Position numbers and translations under genes: made by a program
Source of the DNA: Vicinamibacterales bacterium
Lineage (GTDB): Bacteria > Acidobacteriota > Vicinamibacteria > Vicinamibacterales > JAMQPK01
Assembly: GCA_963825295.1 (NCBI GenBank)
Contig: CAWGSZ010000009.1
Span: 24,188-88,187, forward strand
Length of the DNA: 64,000 nucleotides
Direction of reading: 5' to 3'
Shown: positions 13,366 through 48,477 of the stretch, piece by piece
How the letters are laid out: each line of letters starts with the position of its first letter
How positions within the stretch are numbered: the stretch's first letter is position 1
Notes under the pieces: generated by a model
The model's database searches: none
Told to the model about the DNA's origin: nothing
The model's input: the letters and a program-made list of their open reading frames with translations, nothing else

Positions 13366-13392
13366 CGAGAACTGATTACTGAGAACTGATAA

Positions 13393-14157: not shown

Positions 14158-15069
14158 ATGGAAATCAAACGAAGAGAATTTCTGGCGACCGGTCTCGCGT
14201 TGAACCTCGGTGCGGCGGCGGCTGTGCTGGCTCAGGGTGGGGCGGCGCCCGCTCGTGCCGGCGGCGGTGGCAGGGGCCGCGGCTCTGTTCAGACCCGCGT
14301 TGGAAAGACGACCCGGATGTTCAAGTCCCCCGGCATGTATCCCAACGCGCTGGCCGTCATGACCGACGCACCAGGGGGGCTGTGGATCGGCCAGCAGAAG
14401 ATCACCGCCGACAACAGCAAGACGTACAACCTGCCGGTGGAGAAAGATCCCAGCGAGGCCGCATGGCTGGTCGATTGGAGCGGCAAGCTGGTCAAGACGG
14501 TCACGACGCAGGCGCGCAATACCTCCGGGATGGCCTACGGAGATGGCTACGTGTGGATGGGGGCGAACTCAGAGCCTTATGGCATCTTCCAGGTCGACCA
14601 GAACTCGAAGCAGATCTCGCACCGTCAGATTCCGCTCAGCATCGACGGCCGAGGCGGCGGGACGCATGGCGTGAAGTGGCACAAAGGCAAGCTCTGGATC
14701 GCAGCCCTGCGGCTGGGCGGCATCATGCGTGTCGATCCGAAGTCGTGGGCGCCCGAAGTCCTGATCCGGATCAGCTCCGAGGAGAGACCGCGCCTGCACG
14801 ACGTGGCCTTCGACAACGAGGACAACATCTGGGTCGTGAACGGCAACAACAGCACCAGCTATGCCGAAGGGAAGATGGCCATCAATAAGTATGACGGCCG
14901 GAGCGGCCAGCACCTGATGACGGTCGAGCTTGCGCCCGGATCGTGCGATCCGCACGGGCTCGTGTGGCACGAGGGGCGGCTCATCAGCTGTGATGCCGGC
15001 ATCCACCCCGGATGGAAGGGGTTAGAGAGCCCGCACAGCGGCTATATCTTCAGCATCGAGGTGGCGTAG
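14158..15069 (+). CDS. Tat-exported hypothetical protein, beta-propeller-like
   Basis: ATG 14158 follows GAGAGGTGA. MEIKRREFLATGLALNLGAAAAVLA is a Tat motif. The repeated hydrophobic/Gly/Trp pattern suggests a propeller. I cannot make a confident family assignment. Confidence 0.6.
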   Translation: MEIKRREFLATGLALNLGAAAAVLAQGGAAPARAGGGGRGRGSVQTRVGKTTRMFKSPGMYPNALAVMTDAPGGLWIGQQKITADNSKTYNLPVEKDPSEAAWLVDWSGKLVKTVTTQARNTSGMAYGDGYVWMGANSEPYGIFQVDQNSKQISHRQIPLSIDGRGGGTHGVKWHKGKLWIAALRLGGIMRVDPKSWAPEVLIRISSEERPRLHDVAFDNEDNIWVVNGNNSTSYAEGKMAINKYDGRSGQHLMTVELAPGSCDPHGLVWHEGRLISCDAGIHPGWKGLESPHSGYIFSIEVA

Positions 15070-15108
15070 AACCGCCCACGAACCGTCGCGCGCGCCTGCA
15101 TTATCCCG

Positions 15109-15138
15109 GAGGCGGCTCCGCTATGGTGGAGCCGCCTC
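15109..15138 (+). terminator. GC-rich stem-loop downstream of 14158..15069
   Basis: GAGGCGGCTCC (15109-15119) pairs perfectly with GGAGCCGCCTC (15128-15138) around an 8-nt loop. No T-tract follows. Confidence 0.3.
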
Positions 15139-15270
15139 GGTAATCTGTCCGACACACGATGGGCGAAGCGACTTGCCATCAACTATTTACGCAAGTGCCG
15201 GAATTCCGCTCCTTCTGGCCCCCCTCTTGCGATGTGCCGTCCGTTTGCCATCTTCTTAGGAGGAAAAGAC

Positions 15271-15831
15271 ATGATGAGTCGTTCCGCAGGTACCCAATTG
15301 ATGCTCGCCCTCGCCGTTGCCGCGTTCGTCGCGACCGCCGTGCCCGTTAGCGCACAGAAACCGGTGACGCAGGGCGCCGCCGTCAGCGAAAGCTTCACCA
15401 TCACCGCCATCGACTACAAGTCGCGGCTTGTCACCTTGCGCGACGCCAAGGGTGAGTCCGACACGATGTATTGCGGACCCGAGGTGACGCGCTTCGACAA
15501 GCTCAAGGTCGGCGACAAGGTCAACTTCCGCTATTACGAGTCTGTGGTCTACGCGATCCAGAAGCCCGGCTCGGCGAAGCCCGCCGCGTCGGAGACAGGC
15601 GGCCTCGTGCGGACGCCAGGAGAGAAGCCGGGCGGGACGCTCTCGCAGCAGATGACCGCGACGGTCACCGTCGCTGCGATCGACACAAAGGTCCCGTCGG
15701 TCACGATCACGGCAGCCGATGGCGCGAAGATGTCGTTCAAAGTGGAGAACCCCAAGAATCTCGAAGGCGTGAAGGTTGGCGACAAGGTCGACATCACGTA
15801 CACCCAGGCCCTGGTCATCAGCGTCGAGTAG
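15271..15831 (+). CDS. Secreted protein made of two homologous ~70-aa repeats (unknown family)
   Basis: ATG 15271 lies 7 nt after AGGAGGA and is followed by a signal peptide ending VSAQ. The two repeats are ITAIDYKSRLVTLRDAKGE..KLKVGDKVNFRY and VAAIDTKVPSVTITAADGA..GVKVGDKVDITY. Confidence 0.7.
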   Translation: MMSRSAGTQLMLALAVAAFVATAVPVSAQKPVTQGAAVSESFTITAIDYKSRLVTLRDAKGESDTMYCGPEVTRFDKLKVGDKVNFRYYESVVYAIQKPGSAKPAASETGGLVRTPGEKPGGTLSQQMTATVTVAAIDTKVPSVTITAADGAKMSFKVENPKNLEGVKVGDKVDITYTQALVISVE

Positions 15832-15865
15832 GTGTGTCATAGCCTCTCGATGGCTCCGTTCGGGC

Positions 15866-17095
15866 ATGGTTGTGTTGGCGTCGCTGGCGCTGACGCCCGA
15901 ACGTGCCTTGTGCCAGGCGCCGGCCGACCCCGCGGCTGAACAGCAGTCCGACCTCGTCAGCACCATGGACGTGGTCGACCTGATTCGCAAGCTGCGTCAC
16001 AAGGATCCGCCGCCACCGGCGGCGGCCAGCGATCGGCCAAAGATGCGCGCGATCGCGCCGGTGATCGGTGCGAAGCCATCGAGCGGCGTCATCGGGGGGG
16101 TGGCGGGGAATGTCGCCTTCTATCGGGGCGATCCCGCGACGACGCGCATCTCGTCGAGCGTGGTGAGCGCGACGGTCACGAGCAAGAAACAGGCGGGCAT
16201 CGGCGCGCACACGACGATGTACACCCGCGACGACGGCTGGCTGTTCGAAGGGGACTACCGGTTTCAGTGGACCTCTCAGGAAACCTTTGGACTGGGCACG
16301 AGCACCAGCTCGCCGACCGGCGATCTCGCGAAATTCGATTTCTACCGGCTCTATCAATCACTCTACCGCCGCCTGCGCCCGCATCTGTTCGCAGGTGGCG
16401 GCCTGTACTTCGACAGCCACACGGACGTAAGGCCCGGCGAAGACGCGGAAGACAGCTGGCCGCAGTCGCCGTACTACCTCTACAGCACCACGAACGGCCT
16501 GCCGCTCGACACCCAGATGTCGGTCGGGCCGAGCGTCGAGATCATGTGGGACACCCGCGACAGCTTCATCAACCCTGGTCGCGGCTGGCTCGCGCGCGCA
16601 GGCTATCGTGTGCACATCGACGGGCTGCTTGGCGGCAGCTCGAGCTGGGAGAAGGTCAATCTCGATCTGCGCAGCTACGCGCCGCTCTCATCGGATCGCC
16701 GGCACAGGCTTGCGGTGTGGGCGTACGCCGACCTCGTCGTTGATGGTGTCGCGCCGTATTTCGATCTGCCGACGACCGCCGGCGATTCGTACGGCCGTTC
16801 GGGCCGCGGCTACGCCGAGGGGCATTTTCGCGGAGAGAAGCTCGCGTTCCTCGAGCTCGAGTATCGCGGACCGCTAACGCGCAACGATCTTCTTGGTGTC
16901 GTGGCCTTCTTCAACACGACGACGATTTCCAATCATCAGGAAGGCGAGCGTCTCTTCGACAACTTCGCTCCGGGTGGAGGAGCCGGATTGCGGCTGCTCC
17001 TCAACAAACGATCGAAAACCAATCTCGCGTTCGACGTCGGGTTCGGCGAACGTGGAAACCGCGGCATCTACCTGATGGTCCAGGAAGCCTTCTGA
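15866..17095 (+). CDS. Omp85/BamA-family (bacterial surface antigen) outer-membrane beta-barrel without recognisable POTRA domains
   Basis: Signal peptide MVVLASLALTPERALCQA. The sequence has an alternating beta-strand pattern. The C-terminus is GGGAGLRLLLNKRSKTNLAFDVGFGERGNRGIYLMVQEAF, ending in Phe as is typical for OMP barrels. Confidence 0.65.
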   Translation: MVVLASLALTPERALCQAPADPAAEQQSDLVSTMDVVDLIRKLRHKDPPPPAAASDRPKMRAIAPVIGAKPSSGVIGGVAGNVAFYRGDPATTRISSSVVSATVTSKKQAGIGAHTTMYTRDDGWLFEGDYRFQWTSQETFGLGTSTSSPTGDLAKFDFYRLYQSLYRRLRPHLFAGGGLYFDSHTDVRPGEDAEDSWPQSPYYLYSTTNGLPLDTQMSVGPSVEIMWDTRDSFINPGRGWLARAGYRVHIDGLLGGSSSWEKVNLDLRSYAPLSSDRRHRLAVWAYADLVVDGVAPYFDLPTTAGDSYGRSGRGYAEGHFRGEKLAFLELEYRGPLTRNDLLGVVAFFNTTTISNHQEGERLFDNFAPGGGAGLRLLLNKRSKTNLAFDVGFGERGNRGIYLMVQEAF

Positions 17096-17284
17096 CGGCG
17101 TGCCGCTGGCCGGCATCTCCGCTTTCAACTCTGCACGTTCACTGTCCAACTTCCGCACAATTTCACGCGTCAACGGCGCGCTGCCTGAGAGGCCGTGTCC
17201 TAAACGCCGCGCCAAGTTGGGTTTAAGGACGCCCTCCAGAACGCCGTAGCGGTCTGTCATTTGCACTAAGGCTGCGGTCACCCA

Positions 17285-18286
17285 ATGGAACAAAGCGCGA
17301 AAGTGCTCGTTGTGGATGATTACGAACCGAATGCCAAGGGGATGCGCGACCTCCTCGTGGCGGCAGGCCACACTGTGCGCGTCGCGTACAACGGCATCGA
17401 CGCGCTGCAAGTTGCGTCGGAGGAGCCGCCCGACCTGATCGTGCTCGACGTGGTGATGCCGGGGATGTCCGGCGTGGAAGTCTGCCGCGAACTGAAGGCG
17501 CGCAGCCTCACGCGGTTGACGCCGGTTGTGCTAGTCACCGGCAATTCGGAGCACACGTACCGCCTCGACGGACTCGAGGCCGGCGCCGACGACTTCATCA
17601 AAAAGCCGCTCGATATCCCCGAGTTCCGTACGCGAGTCCGCTCGCTTCTCCGCATGAAGCGCCTGACCGATGAACTGGAATCGACCGAAGCGATCGTCTC
17701 GATGCTCGGACAAATCGTCGAGGCGCGCGATCCGTACACGGAAGGGCATTGCGAGCGTCTTGCCGCCTATGCGACCGGTCTTGGCGCGGCGCTGGGACTG
17801 TCAGACTTCGATCTCGACACGCTGAATCGCGGTGCGGTCCTGCACGACGTGGGAAAAATCGGCATTACCGACGGCGTGCTTCTCAAGCCGGGCCCGCTGA
17901 ACGCCGAGGAACTGATGCTGATGAGACAGCATCCGGTGATTGGCGACAGCCTGTGCCGCACCGTGCGATCGCTCGAACGCGTGCGGCCGATCGTCCGGTC
18001 GCACCACGAACGGGAAGACGGACGCGGATATCCCGACGGCCTCTGCCGCGGGGAAATCCCGCTGCTCGCCCAGATTGTCGGCGTTGTCGATGTCTTCGAC
18101 GCGCTGACGACCAACCGCCCGTACCGGAAGTCGCTGCCCACGCAGGCCGCGTACGACATCATGCTGAAGGACGCGGCGTCCGGCTGGTGTCGCAGTGAGC
18201 TCGTCGTCACCTTTGTCGAGCTTCACCGCAGCGGGCAGTTCGAGAAAGTCGCGGCGAGTCCAGCCTGCGTGAAGCGCACGCCGTAA
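17285..18286 (+). CDS. Response regulator with HD-GYP c-di-GMP phosphodiesterase domain (RpfG-like)
   Basis: Receiver domain motifs VLVVDD, DLIVLDVVMPGMSG (phospho-Asp) and DDFIKKP. HD-GYP motifs HDVGK and HHEREDGRGYPDGL. Confidence 0.9.
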   Translation: MEQSAKVLVVDDYEPNAKGMRDLLVAAGHTVRVAYNGIDALQVASEEPPDLIVLDVVMPGMSGVEVCRELKARSLTRLTPVVLVTGNSEHTYRLDGLEAGADDFIKKPLDIPEFRTRVRSLLRMKRLTDELESTEAIVSMLGQIVEARDPYTEGHCERLAAYATGLGAALGLSDFDLDTLNRGAVLHDVGKIGITDGVLLKPGPLNAEELMLMRQHPVIGDSLCRTVRSLERVRPIVRSHHEREDGRGYPDGLCRGEIPLLAQIVGVVDVFDALTTNRPYRKSLPTQAAYDIMLKDAASGWCRSELVVTFVELHRSGQFEKVAASPACVKRTP

Positions 18287-18357
18287 TAAATCCCCGATTT
18301 TCGACTACACTTATCACTCCAAGCGATACCAATAAGGGCGGGGGCTTTCCGGAGGGC

Positions 18358-20389
18358 ATGATGCTGTCACGAACTCTCTGCGCCATCCTGATCGTTCTGG
18401 TCACCATGTCGCCGGCCGTGGCCGAGGTCGTGCGGATCGAGGTCGCGTCGCGGGCCGACCTCGTCAATGGGAAGCCGTTCGGCGCGACCGGGCCCTATGA
18501 AAAACTGATGGGCCGCATCTACTTCGAAGTAGACCCTTCCAACGACGCCAACAAGATCATCACCGACATCGACAAGGCCCCGAGAAACGCACGCGGGCGC
18601 GTGGAGTTCTCGGCGGACTTCTATCTGATCAAGCCGAAAGAGATCGGGCGCGGCAACGGCACCGTGCTGTACGAAGTTTCGAATCGCGGCGGCAAGGGCA
18701 TGCTCGGCTTCTACAACCACGCTGCCGGGAGCCTGGATCCCGCCACCGACGAGCACATGGGCGACGGCTTCCTGATGAAGCAGGGCTTCACGCTGCTGTG
18801 GGTGGGGTGGCAATTCGATCCGCCGATGCGTGACGGCCTCGTCCACGTCTATCCGCCGGTTGCCACCAACAACGGATCGCCGCTCGTCGGCATCGTCCGC
18901 AGCGAGGTGATCGTCGCGAAAACAGCATTCGATGCGTCGCTCGCCGATCGCGACCATACCGCGTATCCCGTGGCCGACCCGAACGATCCGGCCAACACCT
19001 TGAGCGTGCGCGACACGATCGAGGGTTCGCGCCGCTTCATCCCGAGGAGCGACTGGAAGTTCGCGCGTCTCACGGATGGAAAGGTCGTGCCCGACCTGAC
19101 GCGCGTCTATCTCAACGGCGGCTTCCAGCCCGGCAAGATCTACGAAGTCGTTTACAAATCGCAGAATCCACCTGTCGTGGGTGTGGGCCCGGCGGCCGTG
19201 CGCGACGTGATCTCTCACCTGAAATACGCGTCGGCCGATCCGCTGTCGATTCCGGCCGGGTCGATTCAGCGCGCGATTGCGTTCGGCGTGTCTCAGAGCG
19301 GGCGCTTCCTGCGGACGTACCTGTACTACGGGTTCAACGAAGACGAGGGGCGCCGCAAGGTGTTCGACGGCGTCATGGCGCACGTGGCCGGCGCCGGCCG
19401 CGGCAGCTTCAATCTGCGCTTCGCGCAGGCCTCTCGCGACGGCCATCCGTTCCTGAACAAGTTCTACCCGACCGACATCTTCCCGTTCGCGGACCTCGCG
19501 CAGACGGACCCGAAGACGGGGGAGAAGGACGGGCTGCTGCTGCGCGTGAAGCCCGAGTTCACGCCGCGGATCTTCTACACGAACTCGTCATATGAGTACC
19601 TGGGGCCGTGCGGCGTCGCTGATTCACACCAGCGTCGACGGCAAACAGGATGCCCCGCTGCCGGACGGCACGCGCATCTACATGTTCGCGGGCGGCCAGC
19701 ACGGTCCTGGACCGTTTCCGCCGCGGCGGAGCATCGGGCAGCAGTTGAACAACCCGAACGACTACCGCTGGTCGATGCGCGCGCTCCTGCTGTCGATGAA
19801 CCGCTGGATCAAGGACGGCGTGGCGCCGCCGCCGAGCCGGTATCCACGGATCGCCGACAACACGCTGGTGCAGCTCGATTCGCTGAAGTTCCCAACGCTC
19901 GACGGCGTCGGCAAGCCGACCGAACCGCACAAGGCTTACCGCGTGTTCTACGGTCTCGACTTCGCGTCGAAGGGCATCATCAGCGTGGATCCGCCCGAGG
20001 TGAACGAAGCGTTCCCGATCCTCGTGCCCCAGGTTGATGCCGACGGCAACGAGCTGGCCGGACTGAAGATGCCAGAAGTCGCGGTGCCGCTGGCGACCTA
20101 CACGGGCTGGAACCTCTTCAACGCCGAATCGGGTCCCACGAACCTGCTGTCGAGCATGCAGGGGTCGTATATCCCGCTGTCCCGCACGCGCGCCGATCGC
20201 GAGCGCACCAAGGATCCGCGCCCATCGATCGAAGAGCGGTACCAGGGCAAGCAGCAGTATCTCGACCGCGTGACGGCGGTGGCCAGGGACCTGGTGCAGC
20301 AGGGTTATCTGCTTGAAGAGGACGTCAACACGCTCGTCCGGCACGCCGATGCGCAGTGGAGCTCGTTGACACCCGTCGCGGCGCATTGA
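18358..20389 (+). CDS. Secreted alpha/beta-hydrolase-domain protein (large uncharacterised hydrolase family); one frame disruption at about 19600
   Basis: ORF 18358.. reads sensibly up to ..FYTNSSYEY. ORF 19592..20389 continues WGRAASLIHTSVDG... Removing one C in GAGTAC[C]TGG joins them. GVSQSGRF is a candidate nucleophile elbow. Confidence 0.7.
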
Positions 20390-36008: not shown

Positions 36009-36955
36009 TTACCTGGCTCGTCGTTCCGCCGTCGCGGCGACGCGCGGCGCCTCGGCCTGATTCGGAGAAGGCAGAACACCCGTGAGCGGCACGCCCATCG
36101 GGCCGACCGGGATGTACACCGTCGTGTGATTGGGTGAGTTCACCATCAGCTTCTGCGCCTCGATGGCTTCGTGTTGAATGTAGAGGGCGCTCAGTTGACC
36201 GCGGATAATCTGCATCGCGTTCGCGATGCCCGCCGCCTGGACCTCGCGTTTTGTCCGCTCCTTCCGCTCGATCTCGATTTCCGTGTCCTTACGCTCGAGC
36301 TCCTGTGTCGCGGCGAGTTTCCGTGAGACCGCATCCGCGATTTCCGACGGATACTGGACATTCCCGACGACGACGCTGCTGATGACGAAGGGGCTCGCGT
36401 CGGCATACCCGCGAATGCGGGCGAGAACGGCGTCGCCGATCGGGATCAGCTCGTCCTTGACCGACAAGCCGTTGCGGCGCTGCACCTCATCGCGTGCGTA
36501 GGTGCGCAGCGGTTCGCGGACGAAGTGCGCGTACGCCACCCGCACAATGGCGTCGGGCGATTTCTCGGCGTCCCCGTTGGTGACGGTCGTGCTGAACCGC
36601 TCCATGAACAACGGCACGCGTTGGTCGTCGAGGCGCCACACGGTGTGCACCGCGAAGGAGATCTTCAGGTTGTCGCGGCTGAGCACCGCCTGATCGCCGA
36701 CGAACTCCTCGGTGTACGTGTAGGGCGTGACGCTGACGTTGGTGACGTCGACGAGCCAGCTGCGGCCGGGCGACGTCGGTCCCCGCTGGATGCCGTAGAA
36801 GCGGCTTTGTCCGAAGACCGCTCCCTTAGTGAGATAACCGACGTACCCGGCGGGTGTGTAGGGATTGCGAGATCCCAGCACCCAGACAACGGAGGCGAGA
36901 TGCCGCCTAAGAGGAACAGGAGCACCAGCCCAATTGGAACGCCGCGACGAAGCAT
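36009..36955 (-). CDS. SPFH/Band-7 (prohibitin/HflC-like) lipoprotein; one frame disruption at about 36874-36880
   Basis: ORF 36665..37024 contains MLRRGVPIGLVLLFLLGGISPPLSGC (lipobox LSGC). The reading then moves to ORF 36009..37022 at ..SRNPYTPAGYVGYL.., SRDNLKISF, an Ala/Glu-rich coiled coil, and NHTTVYIPVG. Confidence 0.75.
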
Positions 36956-37292
36956 GGATCGGAGAGACGCGACGGCAGAATCGCCATCGCCATGACGGAA
37001 CGGCAACACGGCAGGCCTCCACACGCCGGCGAGGTTAGCTGACGGGCTCGAGCCTGGAGTTGCTCTATCCGCGTTCCGGTTCGCCCTTCACAGAAGGTCA
37101 GAAGAGAACCGTTCAGCGGAATTCGCCCCGGTGCGCGTTGATTCGCGCCGTGGGTCCCCCGCGACGCCCGGTGGGCGTCTTAGACGTACTACGCAACATA
37201 CGCCTGCGCCCGAACGGCGTCAAGCCATGCAGTTAAAGTCGTGCATTGTCAATTAGTTACGAGGCCATGCCCGGGCGTGCCGTGTGAAAGCG

Positions 37293-37338: not shown

Positions 37339-40300
37339 CTAGTCCGGCACTTGCTTCCACGCGAGCGAGAAGTACACCCCGGGGTCGTTGCCGTCGCTCG
37401 TGCGGACAACCGTTCCGGTCGCTCCGGTCGTGGTGAAGACCCGGTAGGCGAGTGACAACGACGTGTCTTCGCCTTGCGTGTTGCGCCACTGCTGGGTGCC
37501 CGGCACGCTCCAGCCCGCGGTCGGCGCCGTCCACGTGTTGTTCTCGTTCGAGAGCCAGCCGGCCAGTACCAGCTGTTCCGGCCGTATTGGTCATCAGGCT
37601 TGGCACCGTCACCGGTACTGCTGCCGCTGAAGCCCCCGGAGGTCACCGGCACGTCTATCTCCGGGTGCATGCCGGCCGACATCGCGAACGCGAAGCTATA
37701 GACGGTCAGCGCTTCGGTTCCCGACGTGTTGGTCACCGATGGCGTTCCGGCCCAGGTGCCGTTGAAGCGGGTCCAGAAGACGCGTGCCGTCACGCCGTTG
37801 GCCTGCGATTGCGCCTCGGACGTCCATGTCTGCCCGCCCGTCGCCGAGAGGCTCAGCGTTGCGGTCCCGCGATACGCCGCCACCATGACGTACAAGTCGC
37901 CGGTCTGCAGCGTCGCCGGCGGTGTCACCGCGCGTGGTCCCGGACCCGCGCCCGCTGTGTTGTCCATGGTCGGGAAGTGCGTGCCGACCGAGCGGAACGT
38001 GAACGGAACGGGTGGCGGTGGCGGTGGCGTGGGCGTCAGCGCGTACGCGATGTTCGAGGGGTTCGACGGACTGAACAGGTTGAAGGCCCGCACCTGATAG
38101 CCATAGTGCGTCGAGCCGGCAACCGTCGTGTCGTTGTAGCTCAGCACGTTCGGTCCGACCACACCGATCTGAGTGAAGTTGGTGGTGCAGCCCTCCCCGA
38201 GGCAGCGCTCGACGGTGAATCCGGCTTCGTTCGTTGCGTGGTCCAGCCAGGTCAGGGCCACCTGTCCTGCCGAGGCCACGGCCTCCAGGTTCGACGGATC
38301 GGCCGGCGGGTTCGCCGGAATTTCCAGCGCGCGGAACGCCATCCGGAAGTAGATGCCGTTGTCCGGCCCGCTCGCACTCTGTGTGCGAACGATGTTTCCG
38401 GATGGACCGGCCTGACCCAGCAGCCGGTACGCGAACGAGACCGAGCTGTCCGATCCGTTGCTGTTGCGCCACTGCGCCTGACCGCCCGGCGTGCTCCATC
38501 CTGCCGTCGGCGCACCCCACGAGTTGTTGTCACCGGAGATCCACCCGATTAGTGCCAGAGCCCCCTCGGTGTTTGAGTTGAAGGTCGGCACCGTAATCGT
38601 TCCGCCGGCGTGGGTGCCCGAGGCAAACGGGACGTCGACCACCGGATACAGCCCTGACGCCATGTCGAACGCAAAGCCGTAGACCGTCAGCGGCAACGTT
38701 CCAGAGGTGTTCGTCACCGCCGGATTCGCCGTCCAGAAGCCATTGAAGTGAGACCAGAACACGCGCACTGTCTGACCGTTGGCCTGGGTATTCGGCTCGC
38801 TCGTCCAGACCTGCCCTCCGGTCTCGCTCATCGTCAGGGTCGCGGTTCCCCGATATGCGGCGACGATTACCATGAGGTCGCCGGTCGCAAGCGTTGCCGG
38901 CGGTGTGATCGCCCGCGGTCCAGGTCCGCCTCCCTGATCGGCGTTTTCCACGCTCGGGAAGTGCGCGCCGACCGCGCGGAACGTGAAGGGTGGGGTTGGC
39001 GTCGTGGCATCGGCGATCTCCGGTACTGGGAGGTGCCGAGCGCGTTGACGGCCCTGACGCGATACCGGTAGGTCGTCGAGTTGGCGACGGTCGTGTCGTT
39101 GTGACTCGTCGTGTTCGATCCAAGAGCGACGATCGGCACGAAGTTCGTGCACGCCTCGGTTGCGCAGCGCTCGATCTGGAACGCGGATTCGTTCGTCGCA
39201 CCGTCCTGCCACGACAGGCTGACCTGGCCCAGCGATGCGCTGGCCAGCAGGTTCGCCGGCGCACCGGGCGCCGCCGCGGGGTTGATCAGCGTCGCCTTGA
39301 ACGCCATCCGGAAGTAGAGACCGCTGTCGGGCCCAAGTGTGGCCTGGGTACGGGCGATCGTTCCGGTCGTGCCCATTGAGGGCACGTTCCGGAAGGCGAG
39401 CGCGATCGAATTGTCGGAGCCATTGGCGTTGCGCCATTGCGATTGCGAACCCGGCGTGCTCCAACCCGCGGTCGGCGCACCCCACGTGTTGTCGTCGCTC
39501 GAGATCCATCCCACCAGTGCCAGCGCGCTATTCGAGTTGGTGCTGAAGGCCGGCACCGTGGCCGTGCCGCCGGTGTGAGTGCCGGAGCCGAAGGGCACGT
39601 CGATCTCGGGATACGTACCCGGCGCCATGCGGACCGCGAAGCTGTAAACCGTGAGCGGCGACGTGCCCGTGGTGTTCGTCACCGCGGGGTTCCCCGACCA
39701 GATGCCGTTGAACTGGGTCCAGAAGACACGTACCGTCTGAGTGTTCGCCTGAGTATTGGCCTCCGAGGTCCACACCTGTCCGCCCGTCTGGGCCATCGTC
39801 AGGGTGGCCGTGCCGCGGTACGCCGCGACAACCACCACCAGGTCGCCGAGCTGAACGGCCGGCGGAGTAATCGCCCGCGGGCCGGGCCCGGCGCCCTGGT
39901 CGGCGGCGTCTACGGTCGGGAAGTGCGTGCCCACGCCAAGCGGCGTGAACAGCACCGGTGGAGCGACCGTGATCGAGATAGTGGCGGCACTCGAGTCGAC
40001 GCTGGGGCCGAAGGCATTGCTGACGCGGACCCAGTAGCTGGTCTCGGTGGTCAGCGCCGGTGTGGTGAAGTTGGCGCTGTTACCGCCAACCTGAGTGCTC
40101 GTCACGCCGGACGGGCCCTGGTACCACTGGTAGGTCAGATTCGTGCCCGTCGCGCCGACGCTGAGATTGGCGGTGGCGCCTGACGCGATCGTCTGACTCT
40201 GCGGCTGCGTAATGATGGACGGCGCGGCGCCGATCGTAATCACCGCGGCGGCGGAGTTCACGCCGCCAAGTGTGTTGCTTACGCGGACCCAGTAGCTCGT

Positions 40301-43300
40301 CGTGGTGGTCAGCGACGGCGTGGTGAAGTTGGCACTGTTGCCGCCGACCGACGTGGTCGTCACGCCGGGCGCACCTTGGTACCACTGATAGGTCAGATCC
40401 GTGCCGGTGGCTCCGACGCTGAGATTGGCCGACGCCCCCGCTGCGATCGTCTGACTCTGCGGCTGCGTGTTGATAGCGGCGGGGACGCCGATCGAGATGA
40501 TGGCGGTCGCCGAATCGACGCTGGGCCCGAAGGCATTGCTGACGCGGACCCAGTAGCTGGTCTGTGTGGTCAGCGCCGGGGTGGTGAAGTTCGCGCTGTT
40601 GGTGCCTACGAGATTCGTTGTATCCGGCGCGGTGCCGCGATACCACTGATACGACAGGTTCGTGCCGGTGGCCGCGACGCTGAGATTGGCCGTTGTGTTG
40701 GACGCAATCGTCTGGCTCTGCGGCGACGTGCCAATGGCGGCACCCACGCCGATGGAGATGGTGGAGGTGCTCGAGCTGGCGGTGCCGTAGGTATTGCTGA
40801 CGCGGACCCAGTAGCTGGTCTGCGTGGTCAGCTCGGGAGTGGTGAAGCTGGCGCTGTCGGTGCCGACCGGGATCGAGACATCTGGCGCCGTCCCCTGGAA
40901 CCACTGATAGGTGAGCGGGGCCGTTCCGGTGGCTACAACGCTGAGGTTGGCAGTCGCGCCGGAGGCAACCGTTTGATTCTGGGGCGACGTGGCGATCGCC
41001 GCGCCAGCGCCGATCGTGATGGTAGCGGCGCTGGAGTCGACCGTGCCGAAGCTGCTGTTGACCCGCACCCAATAGCTCGTGGTCGTGGTCAGATTCGGCG
41101 TGGTGAAGTTGGGGCTATTTGTGCCCACCAGCGTCGTCGTCACGCCGGATGCCCCTTGATACCACTGATAAGAGAGATTGGTGCCGGTCGCGCCGACGCT
41201 GAGATTGGCCGACGTGCCCGATGCGATTGTTTGAGCCTGCGGCTGCGTGTTGATGCCTGGGCCGGCGCCGATCGAGATGATGGCGGTCGCCGAATCGACG
41301 CTGGGCCCGAAGGCATTACTAACACGCACCCAGTAGCTGGTCTGGGTAGTCAGCGCCGGGGTGGTGAAGTTGGCGCTGTTACTGCCGACGAGATTCGTTG
41401 TATCCGGCGCGGTACCGCGATACCACTGATAGGTGAGCGGGGCCGTCCCGGTGGCCGTGACGCTGAGCGCGGCCGCGGAGTTGGACGCAATCGTCTGGCT
41501 CTGCGGCGATGTTCCAATGGCGGCACCCACCCCGATGGAGATGGTGGCCGTGCTCGAGTTGGCGGTGCCGTACGGGTTGCTGACGCGGACCCAGTAGTTG
41601 GTCTGCGTGGTCAACGGCGGAGTCGTGAAGCTGGCGCTGTTGGTGCCGACCGGGGTCGAGACATTGGGCGCCGTCCCCTGGAACCACTCATAGGTGAGCG
41701 GGGCCGTCCCGGTGGCCGACACGCTGAGGTTGGCCGTCGCGCCGGAGGCGATCGTCTGGTTCTGGGGTGAGGTGCCAATGGCGGCGCCGACGCCGATCGA
41801 GATGACCGCGGTTGCCGAATCGACACTGGGGCCGAAGGCATTGCCGACACGTACCCAGTAACTGGTCTGCGTGGTCAGATTCGGCGTGGTGAAGTTGGGG
41901 CTATTTGTGCCCACGAGATTCGTCGTGTTGGGGGCTGTGCCGCGATACCACTGATACGTGAGATTGGTGCCGGTGGCGCCCACGCTGAGATTGGCCGTGG
42001 CGTTCGATGCGATCGTCTGACTCTGCGGCTGCGTGCCGATGGCGGCGGCGGCGCCGATCGAGATGACGGCCGTCGCTGAATCGACACCAGGCCCGAAGGC
42101 ATTGCTGACACGCACCCAGTAGCTGGTCTGTGTGGTCAGCGCGGGGGTGGTGAAGTTGGGGCTATTACTGCCTACGAGATTCGTTGTGTCCGGCGCGGTG
42201 CCGCGATACCACTGATAGGTAAGCGGGGCCGTCCCGGTGGCCGTGACGCTGAGCGAGGCCGCGGTGTTGGACGCAATCGTCTGACTTTGCGGCGATGTGC
42301 CAACCGCGGCACCCACGCCGATCGAGATCGTGGCCGTGTTCGAGTCGGCCGTGCCTTCCGCGTTGCTGACGCGGACCCAGTAACTGGCCTGCGTAGTCAA
42401 TGCGGGCGTGGTGAAGCTGGCGCTGTTGGTGCCGATCGGGGTCGAGGCATCCGGCGCCGTTCCTTGGTACCACTGATAGGCGAGCGGGGCCGTCCCGGTG
42501 GCAACGACGCTGAGATTGGCCGTCGCCCCCGACAAGATTGTCTGGCTCTGGGGGTGCGTGCCGATGCTTGGCGGGGTGCCGGGCGCGGCCGTCGTGAACG
42601 ACCAGGTTGGCCCGGTCACCGTCTGGTTCCCGTCGCTGACCGTCGCGTACCACTGATATTGAGTATTCGGTGTCCGGCCAGCCCACGCGATCTCAGCCGG
42701 CGTGCCCGACGGCACGCTGTTGTCCGTCCCGATCTGCGTGAACGGCACACCTTGCATGTTGAAGTCGAGCACGAACTGGCTGTTCGCGTCGGTTTCGAAC
42801 TGGCTGAGCTTTGGTGAGTAGGTGTAGACGTAGATCTTGTTCTCGGACGGCTTGAACGTCATGTAGCGCAGCCAGCCGTCGCCGCCGTTGATGCGGCTCT
42901 GGTAATCCGACTCGAGCTGGTGAACCGTGCGGCTCGGGCAGGCGGCGTTGGTCGGCGTCGCATCCGTCCGGTTCGCCTCTCCCGGATAGTGTCCATTCAG
43001 CACCATGACGACATTGCAGTTTGGAACGATCAGATTGGTCCAGACGGTCGCGGCCGGCGTGCCATCCGTCGTCCGGTTGAGCACCGTCGTTGGACGGCTG
43101 CCCGAGTCGCTCAGGAACAGGTGCGTGGCGATGATGGCCTTACGATTCGGGAATGCCTTGAGCACCCGGTCCGCCCACGCCACCGAGTAGGTCGGCATGT
43201 CGGTACTCGAGGTGGATGACGACGAAATCCATCCCGCCTGCGGAGAACAGCGAGAAGTTGTTCTTGTTCTGACGGTTGATGGGATCGGGGCCGAAGAGGT

Positions 43301-46300
43301 TCTGACCAAGATAGCCGCCATCTACGCCAATTGTCGGATAGAACCACATTCGTTCCAGCGGAAATTTGATGTCGTAGTTGGTCGAGACTCCAGCCGAGCT
43401 CATGTCGTGATTGCCGGGGGCAATCCCGTACGGCACATCCGCGTTGTCGAGCACTTGCATGCTCGTACTTGCCCGGTCCCATTCGATGGTCTGAGCGTCG
43501 ATGTGTTCGACGATATCTCCGAGATGCGAGACCCAGATGGTATTCAATGCGCTCTTACTGCTGACAATCCATTCCGTTTGCTGGGTAAACGTCGCAGCAT
43601 TGGCCGCGTTGTCGACGTAGTGCTGCGTATCGGGGATCGCGACGATGGTGAAGTCAGCCGCCGGCGGCCCGTTAACGGCCCGGCCGAAGAACGTCACGTT
43701 CAGCGGCTGGCTCTCGGGATCCAATACGCTGACGCTCAGGCTTGGTGAGGTGGTCTCCCCAGTGGCGCCGTTAGCCGGCGTGTTCAGCACCGGCATGCTC
43801 GGGGCGCTGTTGAACACCAGGTTGAACGGCGCACCGGCCACGCGCGTCCACCCGCTCCCGCTGATCGTGCCGTTCACCACAGGGTTGTAAATGATCGAGT
43901 TGACAACGGTTGTCCCGCCGCCGGTCTCGTTGAGGCCAAACCGGCCGATGAGATTTCCGTCATTCAAGATTGGGGTGTTGATGCGCGCCTGCAGTTCGGC
44001 CAGCGACAGCGCACGATTCCAGATGCGGACCTCGTCGATGACGCCGTTGAAGAGGCCCTCAAATGTTCCACCCGCGTTGAGCGCGGAGCCGATGGAGGCA
44101 TGCTGAATGCTGTCGGACCGTGGCAGGAACTGGTCTTGATTGCCGACGGGCGTCGTGGTGTCAAGCGCGCCGTCGAGATACAGACGCCAATCCTTACCGT
44201 CGTAGGTCGCTGCAGCGTGATGCCACACGCCGTCTGCTGGAACGGGTTTCAGACCCCTGGCCGGATGATTGAGTCCTGTGGCGTTGTCCTCGAAGTCGGC
44301 GCCCAGCACATCGGGAGCACCACCGGTGCCCGGCACGATGCCGAGGAAATAGTTCATGTTGTTGGTTGTGGCTTCGTCCTGGGCGCGCCCTTTGGTGACT
44401 ATCGGCACCGCGATGAAGCCCCCGGAGCCGGTATCGGCCGTCGTGCCTGCTCCGTCACGCCGGAACCAGGCCTCGATGGTCAGCTTCGACGCGCCGAGCT
44501 GAGGCGCCACACCTAATGTCACGTACGCGTTGGTGCCTGTGAAATCGATCGCGTTGTTCGGCTCGACCGGATTGACGGTGACGGTCAGCTCATCAAAACC
44601 GTTGAGCTCTCCGTCGTTGGCCGTCAGCCGAAGTACGTAGGTTCCAGGACCTGAGAAGGTCGCCGTCGTCGTGGTCGTGTCGGGGTCGGCGAACGTAACC
44701 GTTCCAACGGCCGGCGTCCGGTTCGTCCACTGCGGGCTGATGTCGATGCCCGTGAAACCGTCGTCGTTGATCGTTCCGGAAAGCGACACACCGTTGGGCA
44801 GCGCGATCGTCTGATCAGGTCCGGCGTAGACCATCGGCGGCAAGTTGCCCGAGGCGGCCGTCACGGCAATGTTGACCGTATCGCTGCGGACGTAGAGACC
44901 GTCGTTGGCGGTCAATTGCAGAACATAGGTGCCGGCGGCGGGGAAGCCGACGGACGTCACCGCGGAGTTGGCATTACCGAACACCGCTGTTGCCGGCCCG
45001 CTCACCTGACTCCATGTCGTCGTGTTCGGGCCGTCATCGGTGACGCTGCCGTTCAGCTCGGCCGCACCGGCGCCGACGGTCTGATCGGCTCCCGCATTCA
45101 CGACAGGCGGTTGGTTCCAGGCGCGCCGTGCACGGTTCCAGAACCCGAATCCGTGAATGCCGGCTGCTCTCCGGCAACCTGGTAGAACTGCCAGTCGTAA
45201 CGAGTTGTCCTTCAGCGTGAACTTCATGACGCCGTGCGCGGTGTTGTTCCGTACCTGACTCGTCGTGCGTTGGTTTGGAAAGGCTGCCGCTCACGGGGAC
45301 TCCGCCGGTGCCGATGACGAACGTCCGGATGCCGAAGTTGTCGTCGGGCTGACCGGATGCGCCTATGGGTGCCAGCCGCTCGTAGTTGTGCCAGTGTCCG
45401 CCCAGTGAGATGTCGACGCCGTAGTCGTACATCGCCTGCCAGAGCGGCTGCACGTACGCGTGCGCGGCGTCGTCACTGCTCGAGCTGTAGCGCGGCCTGT
45501 GCCACATCGCGATGATGTTGTTCGTCGGGCTGTTCGCCAGGTCGTTGCGCAGCCACTGCTCCTGCGGCGAACCGGGGCGCACCCGTTCGTGTTCCAGAGA
45601 TTGACGTGCACTCGCTGTTGAGCACGACGATGTGCCAGTTGCCGACGTTGTAGCTGTAGTAGCCGCCAGGCGTGCGATCGCCGGCAGGGCCGGTCTGCAC
45701 GCCGTCGCCGTTGAAGTAGTCGTAGTAACCGGTCGCGCCCGGCGTGTTGTAGTCGTGATTGCCGGTGACCGGCCGCGTGCGCGACTTGATGCTGGGACGG
45801 CCCCAGGTCGGCGTGTAGCAGGTGTCGAACTCGGCAGCCGTGCCGTTCACGTACGAGTTGTCGCCGAGCGTGAAGATCGGACCGGGCAGTCCCCTCGAGC
45901 AGCGTGGCGGTGGCGAGCGAGTTGGTCAGCGAATCTCCCACGATGCAGTTCGGGGCGAGGTCGCCAGCGCCGATGAGTACCGAAGTTGACGGTGACCGTC
46001 ATCTCGTCGAACGCCGATTTCGCGCCGTCGTCCGCGGTGAGCCGGAGCACGTACGTGCCTGGTTCTGTGAGCGTGGCGTTGGTCGCCGGAGAATTCGCAT
46101 TGCCAAACGTTACGGCGGCGGGTCCGCTGATCTGCGTCCAGGTTGCGATGAACGCCCCGTCATCGGTGGCCGCACCGGCTAGCGGGACGGTGCCGGCAAA
46201 GTCGATGACCCTGTCGTCGCCCGCGGTTACGACGGGGGTCTGGTTCAGGCTCGCAAGCGGTGTCGCGTTGGCTTCATTCGACGGCGACGACTGAGTGCCG

Positions 46301-48477
46301 AACGAGTTAACCGCCGTGACAACGTAGAAGTACGGCGTGCCGTTGGTAAGACCGAGATTGAGATAGTTGGGTAAGGTCAGCGGCGTCGAGCCATTCAACG
46401 GCGGATCGGCGAGGGAGACCGGACTCGACGTGCTGCGATAGACGTTGTATCCGACGGGTTCGGCATCTGGCGTCCACGTGAGCGAGACGCGCGCATTGCC
46501 CGGGTCGGCGACGAGATCCTGCGGTGCTGCCGGCGGTGTCGTGTACCCCGGGTACGGATACCCGGCGGTCCAGGTCGGCGTGCCCATCAGCGTGCCGGGG
46601 ATATTTCTTGTGGAAGAAGCCGCGATTGGGCCCGATGCCTCGTTCAATTTCCAATATCCAATCAGGGTGGTTATTGCCGGGTCTGACGGGTTGACCTCCT
46701 GAAACATCTTCGCCTGAATGTCTGCCTGGCTTCGCGCTACGTTCCAGATCCGCACTTCGTCCATCAGGCCGGCGAAGTAGCCCTGCGGGCTTCCGGGTGT
46801 GCCGGCTCTGGTGAGCGCGGTTCCGATGGCGGCATGTTGAGTACTCAGGGATTCCGGTGTGAACGCTCCGACATTCAGCGTGCCATCCGCTTGGCCGTCA
46901 AGATACAGTCGCCACGTGGAGCCGTCATAGGTCGCCGCTGCGTGGTGCCACTCGGTGGTGCTGATCGGAATTGGCGTGTTGCCGGTGATCGGATGGTTGC
47001 CACCGTTTACCGTGTCTTCGAAGTCGGCTACGAGGCGACCGCTCGCAGCACTGATGCCAAGGAAATAGTTCATGTTGGCTTCGACGGGCGTTTCAGCCTC
47101 GGCCATGCCTTTGCTGATGAGGGGAATCACGTTGGTGACGCCCGGCAACGTTCCACCGGTCCCTGTCGAAGTCACGGCGCCAGATCCCGTGCGCTTGAAC
47201 CAGGTTTCGAGCGTGAAGGTTTGCGCACCGAGCGCGCCGGTTCCGGCCGCTGCACCGAAGGTGACGTACTGATTGGTACCATTGAACTGCATGCCCGCTC
47301 CCAGCAACGCGCCTGGTGTGGCGGTTACCGCACTCGATGGGGCGGACAGGTTGGAGGCCGTGTCGATGGCCTTGACGGTATAGCTGTACAACGTGCCATT
47401 GGTGACAGTGTTGTCGGTATAGATGGGGCTCGTCAGCGGTGCGATGTTAAGAGGAGTGCCAGTGCCCGACGCGTTCCTGTATACGTTGTAGCCCGTCAGA
47501 TCGAACGCGGGAGTGTGATCCCACGTAATCGTGACGAGACTGTTCCCAGTGTTGGCGGCGACATTCTGCGGCGCTGATGGTGCTACGGTGTCGGCGGGGA
47601 CGCCACCGACGATCCGGGCCGCCGCCGCTGCGTTCAGGAGTGTTCCATGCGGGCGGTCAGCAACAGAATTGAAAACTGCTCCTCCACTTCCCTCGTTCAG
47701 GCCCCAGCGCCCAATCAAGCCAGCTCCGGAGGTCAACTCCTGGTTCATGCTGGCGACGACCTGTGCCTGGGTGCGCGCGACGTTCCAGATGCGCACTTCG
47801 TCGATGACACCGTTGAAGAACCCGGCGGCAGTTCCGTTTGAGGTGAGCGCGCTTCCGATTGATGCGTGCTGAATGCTGTCGGCCCTGGGCGAACGATCGC
47901 CGGCCGGGACATTTGTGATACCAACTTGAACGCCGTCAAGATACAAAATGAATGCGCCTGTCGTGCTGTCGTACGACGCGGCCGCGTGATGCCAGACATT
48001 AGGACTGATGACGGTCGTAGACGTTACGGGACGATTGGCGCCAGCCGCAGCGGTTTGTCCGGCTGCTTCCTCGAAATCGGCCGCAAGCGTGTTCGCGACA
48101 TTCGGAGACGTGGCGGACGTGTTTATCCCTAGAAAGTAGTTGAGATCAACATTGGTCCCGTCCGACTCTCCTCGACCCTTTGATACAAGCGGTACGACCG
48201 ATGTGAGTGCTCCAGTGCTGGTGGGTGCGCCTGTCGGGGTCGTTTCCCGCTTGAACCACAGTTCGAGAGTGAAGTCTGTGGCGTTTAGGCCATTCGGTCC
48301 GGTAGCGGCACCGAACGTGACGTAGTCGTCTACGCCATCAAAATCAATCGCGTTGGGGAGCGTGGCGATCTGCCCCGCGGGCCGATCCCCGCTCATCAGC
48401 GCAAGCACCACAACGGCGAAAGCCATCACTCCGAAGCGCGTGGCTCTGGTGAATCTGGCGCGGGCTCGTTGCGTCAT
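37339..48477 (-). CDS. Giant exported multidomain protein G1 (~3,700 codons): signal anchor, LamG, FN3, LamG, FN3, PKD-like, metallophosphoesterase-1, PKD-like x2, LamG, metallophosphoesterase-2, 10 Ig-like repeats, then (unknown ~220-aa module + FN3) x2 + unknown module; 11 frame disruptions
   Basis: ATG 48477 lies 7 nt after [36 protein letters not shown] is a signal/anchor. LamG signatures: [19 protein letters not shown](S/T)[17 protein letters not shown]3: LTW..GYNVYR. Metallophosphoesterase motifs: GAGD/LGDNSY/GNHD/WHRP/GHWHNYE and IPDTQH/LGDIVE/GNHD/NGHYPGE. The track ORFs 45847..48477, 45363..45941, 45473..45850, 45034..45582, 43140..45227, 38867..43321, 37320..39509 and 37325..37612 join end to end with no domain lost. 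The true stop TAG is at 37341-37339. Confidence 0.7.
37342..39949 (-). repeat. Three copies of an unassigned ~220-aa module (X1 39295-39949, X2 38328-38987, X3 37342-38003) separated by FN3 domains
   Basis: Shared motifs: F(T/P)F..VG(T/A)HFP(T/S)(V/M)(D/E)N, GPGPRA(I/V)[56 protein letters not shown](I/L)S..N.W.APTAGWS.PG.Q.QWRN, G.YF(R/S)(M/L)AF/W. Confidence 0.75.
39968..42574 (-). repeat. Ten tandem Ig-like domain repeats (~87 aa, ~261 bp) with a three-repeat (~783 bp) higher-order unit
   Basis: Each unit follows the pattern (S/T)(S/Q)PQ(S/N)QTI(A/L)S..(A/T)A.LSV.ATGT..L.YQW(Y/F)(Q/R)G......[20 protein letters not shown]...S..A.I(S/T)IG. DNA blocks starting near 40501, 41281 and 42065 are nearly identical over hundreds of nt by eye. 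Confidence 0.85.
42763..43652 (-). other. Metallophosphoesterase module 2 of G1 (one frame disruption at about 43204)
   Basis: [36 protein letters not shown]|[30 protein letters not shown]. The junction GAGTAC[C]GAC needs a 1-nt correction. Confidence 0.75.
45115..45981 (-). other. Metallophosphoesterase module 1 of G1, interrupted by seven frame disruptions
   Basis: Reconstructed reading: [21 protein letters not shown]|[40 protein letters not shown]|.[11 protein letters not shown]|[42 protein letters not shown]..|[29 protein letters not shown]|[26 protein letters not shown]|.WNQPPVV. All catalytic motifs are intact at the residue level. Confidence 0.7.

Follow-up and report, generated by a model that had tools for sequence, protein, structure and literature searches.

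The X module, which occurs three times at the C-terminal end of the giant protein G1, is predicted to be a self-contained all-beta domain and belongs to a large unannotated family. The family is undescribed, though its kind is familiar. Judged by the contexts in which its homologues are found (pilus tip, phage tail and giant surface protein), X is probably a ligand-recognition or adhesion domain, which would be trivalent in G1. The G1 gene lies on the minus strand of the window (the whole 64-kb stretch of DNA that was analysed). Its features, from the N-terminus to the C-terminus of the protein, were as follows:

37342..48477, minus strand: G1, a giant secreted multidomain protein of ~3,700 aa, with at least 8 frame changes (tblastn chain to the orthologue at locus L005)
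48370..48477, minus strand: N-terminal basic and hydrophobic segment ([36 protein letters not shown]; read from the sequence)
45217..45892, minus strand: first calcineurin-like metallophosphoesterase domain, split over three frames (frame-by-frame translation)
approx. 42990..43570, minus strand: probable second metallophosphoesterase domain (DTQH, GDIVEH and GNHD; motifs in the translation)
39950..42586, minus strand: stalk of 11 Ig-like repeats (Pfam Ig_7, CHU_C-associated; Ig_7 E 5e-78, 11 stretches)
39295..39949, minus strand: X1 module, 218 aa (tblastn and AlphaFold2 model)
38988..39294, minus strand: FN3-like spacer 1, with an ERCATEAC pair and a 1-base deletion at 39022 (Pfam fn3; alignment with locus L001)
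38328..38987, minus strand: X2 module, 220 aa (tblastn; 69% identical to X1)
38004..38327, minus strand: FN3-like spacer 2 (ERCLGEGC), followed by a Pro-rich linker (translation)
37342..38003, minus strand: X3 module, 220 aa after correction; the protein ends in ...AWKQVPD, then a stop (tblastn)
37615 and 37572, minus strand: two single-base insertions, an extra C each, giving a double frame shift inside X3 (alignment with locus L001)

The X Modules and Their Triplication

When X1 was searched against the window with tblastn, exactly three copies were found, all on the minus strand: X1 itself (39949-39296), X2 (38987-38331, E 7e-101) and X3, which was matched in two pieces (37988-37354, 54-70% identity, E 2e-56). 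When the six-frame translation of the 64 kb was scanned with a family HMM, no fourth copy appeared. Pairwise identity among the copies ranged from 60 to 69%, which bore out the three homologous modules that the earlier note had described here. After the extra C was removed at both positions, X3 was full length and 60% identical to X1 and X2, and the protein P0012 is its intact orthologue. The sequence motifs said to be common to the modules were present, X3 showing small deviations (ARVFW for [18 protein letters not shown]; YFSLAW for YFRMAF). An alignment of 15 copies from five genomes contained 73 invariant positions, and the lack of Cys noted for the copies in the window held in all 15.

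Across five Vicinamibacterales genomes, orthologous X copies shared 75-85% identity and paralogous copies 58-72%, and the copies clustered by position, across species. The dN/dS values of X were 0.08-0.22, the lowest of these belonging to X1 and its closest relative, which differ at 2 residues. Given this grouping by position and these dN/dS values, the triplication is therefore old and under purifying selection. An assembly duplication artefact was considered as the source of the triplication and rejected: the copies are only 60-69% identical, and the position-specific trio is also present in five other genomes.

Architecture and Neighborhood of G1

G1 is colinear over its full length with the intact 3,686-aa orthologue at L005 (tblastn chain, 56-81% aa identity). 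Its N-terminal segment is probably a signal peptide or signal anchor. The stretch of L005 orthologous to the first metallophosphoesterase domain matched Pfam Metallophos with E 3e-11. The equivalent of the second matched the same family with E 9e-4 and 20.1 bits, just below the cut-off of 21.5, and in G1 this probable domain is broken by a frameshift near 43200-43260. LamG and PKD modules are also carried upstream of X, and the Pfam match to Laminin_G_3 in G1 lies outside X.

The modules had been described as spaced by FN3 domains with an unusual ERC....C pair. The pair is present in the spacers, while the likeness to FN3 is sub-threshold only: spacer 1 matched Pfam fn3 with E 4e-4 and 20.9 bits, below the cut-off of 25, and spacer 2 had no Pfam match. 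The best spacer matches among PDB sequences were all FN3 domains (DCC with E 0.0018, FN3con and titin).

Translations of the ORFs neighbouring G1 (36-54 kb) were read, and they comprised an SPFH-like protein, an unassigned 441-aa protein and a membrane permease-like protein, with no pilin-type sequences among them. No phage genes were found around G1, which is a cellular gene, and neither G1 nor its intact orthologue matched DUF6701. The lack of a pilus or phage context and of DUF6701 runs against an adhesin reading for G1 itself.

Frame Changes in the G1 Gene

The X copies had been placed at the C-terminus of G1, and this needs a correction: the gene is frame-broken in this assembly. Compared with the intact orthologue, G1 as sequenced is not one ORF and has at least eight frame changes in 11.1 kb. 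Three of the changes fall in the X region, where alignment with L001 showed that the first spacer has lost one base, at 39022, and that X3 has gained a C at 37615 and another at 37572; the frame must accordingly be corrected twice before X3 can be read. The orthologues at L004 and L005 are single stop-free frames (3,977 and 3,686 aa) with all three X modules in frame, and the C-terminal order in the Vicinamibacterales orthologues is X1-FN3-X2-FN3-X3, with FN3 denoting an FN3-like spacer. With this number of frame breaks G1 may be non-functional in this organism, a point that also speaks against an adhesin reading.

One explanation of the frame changes is that G1 is a decaying pseudogene here, so that X would have no current function in this genome, whatever the family does elsewhere. 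It would account for so many changes within 11.1 kb, for the five other ORFs of >800 aa in the window that stay unbroken, and for breaks that concentrate in two stretches, 46.0-45.2 kb and 39.0-37.6 kb, leaving the most repetitive Ig region unbroken. We nevertheless consider it doubtful. No in-frame stops or large deletions were seen in G1, colinearity with the intact orthologue persists at 56-81% aa identity, and X1 is only 2 residues away from its closest relative, with a dN/dS of 0.08. Furthermore, the closest relatives were assembled as Nanopore MAGs, and among the six orthologous loci L002-L007 frame breaks were found in four. The breaks lie at differing places in L002, L003 and L006; L007 is disrupted and retains only a single chimeric X copy. 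A broken efflux-pump gene lies near L001, which belongs to the same record as L002, and two of the break sites have a common GTAC(C)GG context. This pattern points to consensus errors.

Family Placement of X

X1 and X2 matched no family at E<=1 in Pfam-A 2025 or PHROGs v4, X1 matched none in NCBIfam 20.0, and the X regions of at least 20 homologues were likewise unmatched by curated profile libraries. The homologues were all named 'hypothetical protein', and their precomputed Pfam fields were empty. Profiles from three alignments of X (A2, A3 and A4) were run against PDB sequences with hmmsearch, and the best E values were 0.17-0.37. The AlphaFold2 model of X1 was confident (pLDDT 85.4, pTM 0.86) and all-beta, with 14 predicted strands, and Foldseek found no significant match to it in the PDB (best E 0.025, probability 0.30, TM <=0.33). 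A ConA/LamG home for X was rejected (Foldseek E 0.25-0.43, TM ~0.15; no Pfam LamG or CBM match), as were cupin and viral jelly-roll assignments (Foldseek insignificant, TM <=0.33). The literature search found no paper describing the X domain. The earlier note could place X in no family known to its reader, and the Pfam, NCBIfam, PHROGs and PDB searches agreed with this; a confident match to a described family of known function, which it had named as the contrary outcome, was looked for and not found.

The X profile search gave 995 clusters (50% identity) at E<=1e-3 and 518 at E<=1e-30. These ~1,000 clusters came from Acidobacteriota, Thermodesulfobacteriota, Bacteroidota, Proteobacteria, Nitrospirota and viral contigs. 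In the homologues, X was found directly after signal peptides, at C-termini, mid-protein and as a stand-alone protein, and tandem stand-alone X genes occur. The idea of a new domain on a giant protein was thus correct as regards an undescribed family, but X is not special to G1, given the ~995 clusters and the structural relatives in phages. X has no name, Pfam entry or solved structure, and defining the family would annotate thousands of 'hypothetical' proteins.

Homologues in Pilus Operons

The operon at locus L026 encodes MshE, MshG, six N_methyl pilins and a PilX_N protein, and then a 1,855-aa protein comprising X, G8, LamG and DUF6701. This protein occupies the mshQ position, as the last gene of an MSHA-type operon. 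Proteins P0035 and P0041 have the related architecture of signal peptide, X, LamG and DUF6701. MshQ has been proposed as a PilY1-like tip adhesin that docks via its extreme C-terminus (PMC12918778), and in the MshQ-like proteins X lies at the end of the polypeptide opposite this predicted docking C-terminus. Ice-binding DUF3494 domains also precede the C-terminal DUF6701 in proteins of this type (PMC11645318), and the region ahead of DUF6701 can therefore be a surface-binding module. From its place at the N-terminal end of MshQ-like proteins, X is a candidate for the surface-contacting part of MSHA-type pili.

A second pilus context was found in a Syntrophaceae operon (L013) with the order T2SSF, three pseudopilins, X-protein, PilMN, PilO and secretin, in which X is fused to a fourth pilin-like protein. 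Protein P0036 has a GFALLE prepilin motif upstream of X, and the pilin-X fusion had weak NCBIfam matches to ComGE and GspK. The AlphaFold model of the fusion P0020 was mediocre (pLDDT 69), and a fold search with it found no match in the PDB. Its assignment as a pilin therefore depends on the surrounding operon, the N-terminal motifs, the hydrophobic N-terminal helix and the weak NCBIfam matches.

Homologues in Phages

A Foldseek search of the X model against BFVD gave 37 matches at E<=1e-3 (probability 1.00, TMq 0.5-0.77, ~210-250 columns). The matched proteins were uncharacterised Caudoviricetes proteins with 13-24% identity, including mycobacteriophage 'minor tail proteins' (Hawkeye X2KSL9, Tweety A5YJY9, Myrna B5LJB8 and PP A0A2Z5XVD2). 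As the structural matches are predicted, uncharacterised phage proteins, no function was transferred from them. X in the strict sense, searched with the narrower alignment A6, was found in 21 IMG/VR viral contigs; it directly follows a tail-fibre-like protein in L038 and a virion structural protein in L044. By hhalign, X was also linked to the N-terminal domains of P0040, P0153 and similar proteins (84% probability, E 7e-6, 171 columns), and the proteins of this wider domain family have other phage-like parts. Searches of GenBank phages with X1 and P0067 (tblastn) gave no match, and P0112 matched phage records solely outside its X domain. The presence of X in phage tail modules suggests host-recognition modules common to pili and phages.

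Proposed Function of X

We propose that X is probably a ligand-binding head domain, which bacteria and phages would display on the outer tips of elongated surface structures. The C-terminal and presumably distal end of the secreted, ~3,700-aa G1 consists of its three diverged paralogous modules, which alternate with FN3-like spacers. Carried on the long Ig stalk, the modules would serve in ligand recognition and adhesion, and the ligand would probably be a glycan or other surface polymer. Three copies could allow multivalent and possibly heterovalent binding, which would keep G1, catalytic domains included, attached to the surface of a substrate or partner. The Vicinamibacterales are an abundant, poorly understood soil group, and X indicates possible substrate targeting of their giant secreted phosphoesterase-bearing proteins. 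The earlier note had suggested a binding or an anchoring role. The homologue contexts (MshQ-like tip, minor-pilin fusion and phage tail modules) favour the former, as a putative binding or adhesin domain, whereas anchoring is not favoured, X being found at mature N-termini, at C-termini, mid-protein and alone.

The close-family alignment shows six conserved Trp positions (W60, W77, W84, W156, W163 and the W of QWRN, the last being Y in the wider family), and many of the conserved polar residues fall in predicted loops. Conserved Trp together with polar residues in loops is a pattern common in carbohydrate-binding sites. However, D14, Q58, N81, D117, Q171, R173, N174 and S181 are conserved or nearly invariant across very different hosts and contexts. 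Conservation of such breadth would suit a catalytic or metal site better than an adhesin adapting to varied receptors, and this counts against the binding reading.

This polar set, nearly invariant family-wide, would also suit an enzyme domain (e.g., a glycan-cleaving domain or an esterase, like the phage-tail depolymerases) acting on a common polymer, in which case the trio would add catalytic capacity beside the phosphoesterases. Protein P0033 pairs the X family with polysaccharide-lyase-like and malectin domains, and the structural relative ValentiniPuff has a GDPD enzyme domain; enzymes are also frequent on phage tail proteins. Even so, an enzymatic role appears unlikely to us. No enzyme-fold likeness was found in the PDB (best Foldseek E 0.025, TM <=0.33), and X has no Pfam, NCBIfam or PDB sequence match. 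Conserved His, Cys and Glu are absent and no catalytic motif is recognisable, consistent with the initial impression that there was no obvious catalytic triad. A tandem trio of paralogues on spacers is, moreover, typical of binding modules and not of catalytic ones. The C-terminal position of X in G1, where no PEP-CTERM, TM helix or sortase motif is visible, together with an N-terminus resembling a cleavable signal peptide, would instead fit an anchor or self-association domain, which would tie G1 to the producer's own envelope, EPS or S-layer, or to another G1, and leave the LamG and phosphoesterase part displayed outward. Tandem repeats of wall-binding modules are a common anchoring solution (SLH, LysM). 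We regard such an anchor as quite improbable, because most family members have X after the signal peptide of long proteins, at the protein start, or alone. In addition, X of the MshQ-like proteins sits opposite the predicted pilus-docking extreme C-terminus, and in viral contigs X lies beside tail-fibre genes, where an anchor to one's own envelope makes little sense.

A ligand-recognition or adhesion domain thus remains our preferred reading of X. In a more specific form, which we put forward tentatively and as a possibility, X would be the receptor-binding head of MshQ-type tip adhesins, some minor pilins and many phage tail proteins, with a beta fold unrepresented in the PDB and a conserved polar, Trp-rich pocket for a common glycan. 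The three specialised copies in the acidobacterial G1 proteins, made of a module exchanged between phages and pili, would then hold the extracellular phosphoesterases on polymer surfaces.

Comparison with Known Systems

The MshQ-like proteins (DUF6701), proposed PilC/PilY1-like tip adhesins of MSHA-type type IV pili, have X in common with G1, as their N-terminal module, and both are large multidomain surface proteins containing LamG. However, MshQ-like proteins contain DUF6701 and are encoded after the minor pilins of an MshE/MshG operon, and G1 has neither feature; they carry X once, at the N-terminus, whereas G1 carries it three times, at the C-terminus. G1 is not an MshQ/PilY1-like tip adhesin by these features, and the X module alone is common to the two. 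Among minor pilins of the PilX/GspK class, Syntrophaceae and Thermodesulfobacteriota MAGs encode a pilin-like protein whose C-terminal globular domain is X, and its gene closes a row of four pilin genes in the operon running from T2SSF to PilMNO and secretin; G1, by contrast, has no pilin N-terminus. Like the ConA-like/LamG carbohydrate-binding modules on giant adhesins, X is all-beta, ~200 residues long, repeated, spaced by FN3-like or Ig domains and rich in conserved Trp, and its giant carrier G1 also has true LamG domains; X differs from them in having no sequence or fold match (ConA Foldseek E 0.25, TM 0.16). The phage tail and host-recognition proteins matched here have a predicted fold in common with X, and X also occurs in IMG/VR contigs beside tail-fibre or virion structural genes. 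These phage proteins are uncharacterised, with no solved structure that matches, and G1 has no phage genes nearby.

X modules and spacers at the C-terminus of G1

A tblastn search with the first module (X1) recovered three copies in the window, all on the minus strand at the end of G1, the gene for a giant secreted multidomain protein.

Matches to the X1 query (tblastn)
39949–39296, minus strand: X1
38987–38331, minus strand: X2, 69% identity, E 7e-101
37988–37647 and 37572–37354, minus strand: X3 in two pieces, 54–70% identity, E 2e-56

No further copy was found in the 64 kb by the family HMM run over the six-frame translation. The motifs reported in the earlier note were seen in the translations, slightly altered in X3, and its remark that X lacks cysteine held for all 15 copies compared, which came from five genomes. 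The modules are separated by spacers of ~100 residues each, which carry the ERC....C pair that the same note described, plus a Pro-rich linker. The FN3 identity it gave them was weak: spacer 1 matched Pfam fn3 at E 4e-4 (20.9 bits, cut-off 25), spacer 2 had no match to fn3, and the top matches of the spacers among PDB sequences were all FN3 domains (DCC at E 0.0018).

Size, conservation, and fold of the X family

X had no match in Pfam, PHROGs, or NCBIfam even at E ≤ 1, and its profiles matched none of the PDB sequences. Against 1.84 billion representatives, the X profile found 995 clusters at E ≤ 1e-3 and 518 at E ≤ 1e-30; X is a widespread family and not peculiar to G1. The source-named homologues were all called "hypothetical protein," and none had a precomputed Pfam domain. 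Among the best 150 matches plus earlier ones, X followed immediately on the N-terminal signal peptide of proteins as long as 7,731 aa, began at Met1 without a signal peptide, formed C-termini, or stood alone in proteins of ~250 aa. The residues kept across the set were P-x-D near the start, TPP, GDLV, GGQ-W, NGTW...P, VFR, D, DDNTW, GW, Q-RN, G-D-S, and G-D-G.

In profile-profile comparison X matched a divergent N-terminal domain of P0040, P0153, and similar proteins (84% probability, E 7e-6), some of which match phage families or phage genomes in other parts. The superfamily probably extends far beyond the 995 clusters. This X-like domain occupied the N-terminal ~200 aa of P0040, P0153, P0158, P0123, P0150, and P0251, with NDILIA, GDLLV, or similar motifs close to its beginning, and in several proteins it lay ahead of a canonical X; the only PHROG match among these six was to phrog_6813 (unknown function). 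Paralogue arrays indicated that X is readily duplicated: four stand-alone genes lay in tandem in a Brevundimonas MAG (L020, 30–3369), two directly downstream of a 9,665-aa protein (L030, 7067–8753), and five copies were distributed among several large ORFs of a further Acidobacteriota MAG (L019, 953–18507).

The AlphaFold2 model of X1, from a 12-sequence alignment, was confident (pLDDT 85.4, pTM 0.86) and all-beta, with 14 strands. Foldseek gave no significant match to solved structures (best E 0.025, TM ≤ 0.33), and it gave 37 matches to predicted viral structures (E ≤ 1e-3, probability 1.0, TM up to 0.77). All 37 were uncharacterised; several carried the annotation of a minor tail protein of mycobacteriophages, and one was fused to a glycerophosphodiester phosphodiesterase.

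Reading frame of G1

The earlier note had treated G1 as one giant protein, to which a correction must be added, as the gene is frame-broken in this assembly. X1 and X2 lie in different frames as sequenced, and X3 runs through three. The closest relatives are Vicinamibacterales (Acidobacteriota) MAGs of the Microflora Danica Nanopore project. Compared with the closest locus (L001, 92.6% DNA identity here), the causes were single bases: one lost at 39022 and an extra C at both 37615 and 37572. L001 has its own extra base within X2, equivalent to window position 38532. To keep the whole of G1 colinear with an intact orthologue of 3,686 aa, the frame had to be changed at least eight times.

Frame changes in G1 (match to the intact orthologue)
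near 45988, 45892, 45580, 45240, 43200, 39022, 37615, and 37572, minus strand

In two orthologous loci (L004 and L005) the gene is uninterrupted by stops, encodes 3,977 and 3,686 aa in a single frame, and ends with X1-FN3-X2-FN3-X3. The other four of the six examined (L002–L007) were disrupted, each at other positions: L002, L003, and L006 were broken at sites differing between genomes, and L007 retained a sole, chimeric X2/X3 copy. In the latter (10001–10813, P0001), the first two-thirds were X2-like and the last third X3-like, replacing the three copies, which is either inter-repeat recombination or assembly collapse. The RND efflux-pump gene (ACR_tran) adjoining the L001 orthologue (15402–19150) was called as fragments of 188, 205, and 338 aa; the frameshifts in L001 are thus not limited to G1.

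The breaks could be consensus errors, as their positions differ from genome to genome, two indel sites share the context GTAC(C)GG, and the neighbouring efflux-pump gene of L001 is broken too. They could also reflect real decay, as five other window ORFs longer than 800 aa are unbroken, or they could reflect strain mixture. The 4.2 kb of Ig repeats in G1 contained no frame break. Pseudogene status of G1 in this one genome is less likely than not, though a fair possibility. The X-spacer architecture is real despite the frame breaks.

Age of the triplication

Orthologous X copies shared 75–85% identity across species, and paralogues within a genome 58–72%. This indicated that the three copies predate species divergence and were not homogenised. 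The dN/dS of the window copies against their orthologues was 0.08–0.22; 73 aligned positions were invariant in 15 of 15 copies, and only eight were fixed differently between copy types. The triplication is thus old and under selection. The earlier description of X as an unassigned, conserved, and triplicated module was broadly right.

Domain organization of G1

The domain order was read from G1 together with its orthologue.

Domains of G1 (minus strand)
N-terminus: basic and hydrophobic leader
after the leader: LamG, FN3, and PKD modules
45217–45892: calcineurin-like phosphoesterase (E 3e-11 in the orthologue)
after the first phosphoesterase: further PKD and LamG modules
~42990–43570: probable second phosphoesterase (20.1 bits, slightly below cut-off)
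after the second phosphoesterase: 10–11 Ig_7 repeats
C-terminal end: X-spacer array

No C-terminal anchor was recognisable in G1. Its calcineurin-like metallophosphoesterase domains, the first clear and the second probable, suggest that the body of the protein acts as an extracellular phosphoesterase or nuclease. The gene directly downstream (36009–37022, minus strand) encodes a product that resembles SPFH/band-7 proteins, as judged by eye from the translation.

X in pilus and phage contexts

In a betaproteobacterial MAG (L026), genes for an MshE-type ATPase, a T2SSF platform protein, six N_methyl pilins, and a PilX_N protein precede that of a 1,855-aa protein composed of X, G8, LamG, and DUF6701, an order which is the mshDOPQ arrangement. 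The complete MSHA-type operon spans 2727–15310, with a T2SSE ATPase bearing an MshEN domain and the X gene last; behind it, at 15334–20085, lies another ORF, of 1,583 aa. AlphaFold modelling has led to the proposal that MshQ is a tip adhesin of the PilC/PilY1 type, docking on the minor-pilin complex through its extreme C-terminus (PMC12918778). X in the L026 protein lies at the opposite polypeptide end from this predicted docking C-terminus, and P0035 and P0041 have the layout signal peptide-X-LamG-DUF6701. In Colwellia and other bacteria, the ice-binding DUF3494 is found upstream of a C-terminal DUF6701 (PMC11645318), so the region ahead of DUF6701 can be a surface-binding module.

A second pilus-like context was found in a Syntrophaceae locus (L013), where a 358-aa protein combines a hydrophobic N-terminus resembling that of pilins with X as its C-terminal domain; genes for three GFTLIE pseudopilins precede its gene, and those for PilM/N, PilO, secretin, and an ExeA-like ATPase come after it. 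In P0036, X is preceded by a GFALLE prepilin motif. Furthermore, X was present in 21 IMG/VR viral contigs (32–59% identity), in one of which (L038) the gene immediately upstream encodes a 1,255-aa protein with a tail-fibre PHROG match; in another (L044) the X gene lies after that of a 1,167-aa virion structural protein.

Putative function of X

In both the pilus-tip and the phage contexts, X is in the protein part expected to face outside. G1 carries three diverged X modules on FN3-like spacers, and an Ig stalk of 11 repeats leads up to them. On the simplest reading, which we consider the probable one, X is a ligand-recognition (adhesin or lectin-like) head, trivalent in G1, and would keep the protein, phosphoesterase domains included, attached to a surface or polymer. 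What speaks most against this is the set of invariant polar residues, which adhesins meeting diverse receptors do not usually show; such a set would also suit catalysis, the binding of a structural metal, or recognition of one ubiquitous ligand. An enzymatic role for X seems unlikely. The earlier note had proposed either binding or anchoring. X probably binds something, so that the note was broadly right here, too; anchoring to the envelope of the producer itself is the less likely of the two, and an improbable one, because X occurs at either protein end, alone, and in phages.

With binding as its putative function, X offers a sound starting point for the definition of a new domain family and for probing the ligands of some phage tail proteins and of MSHA-type pili at their exposed end. 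MshQ-like tip proteins share the X domain with G1, whereas G1 has neither DUF6701 nor a pilus operon; a phage tail protein cluster shares the fold of X, whereas no phage genes lie near G1. G1 is thus a member of neither class, and every test run placed X outside the LamG/ConA, CBM, FN3, and Ig domains. Therefore, X is a domain family not described before, and its functional kind, that of beta-sandwich tip or adhesion modules, is a familiar one.
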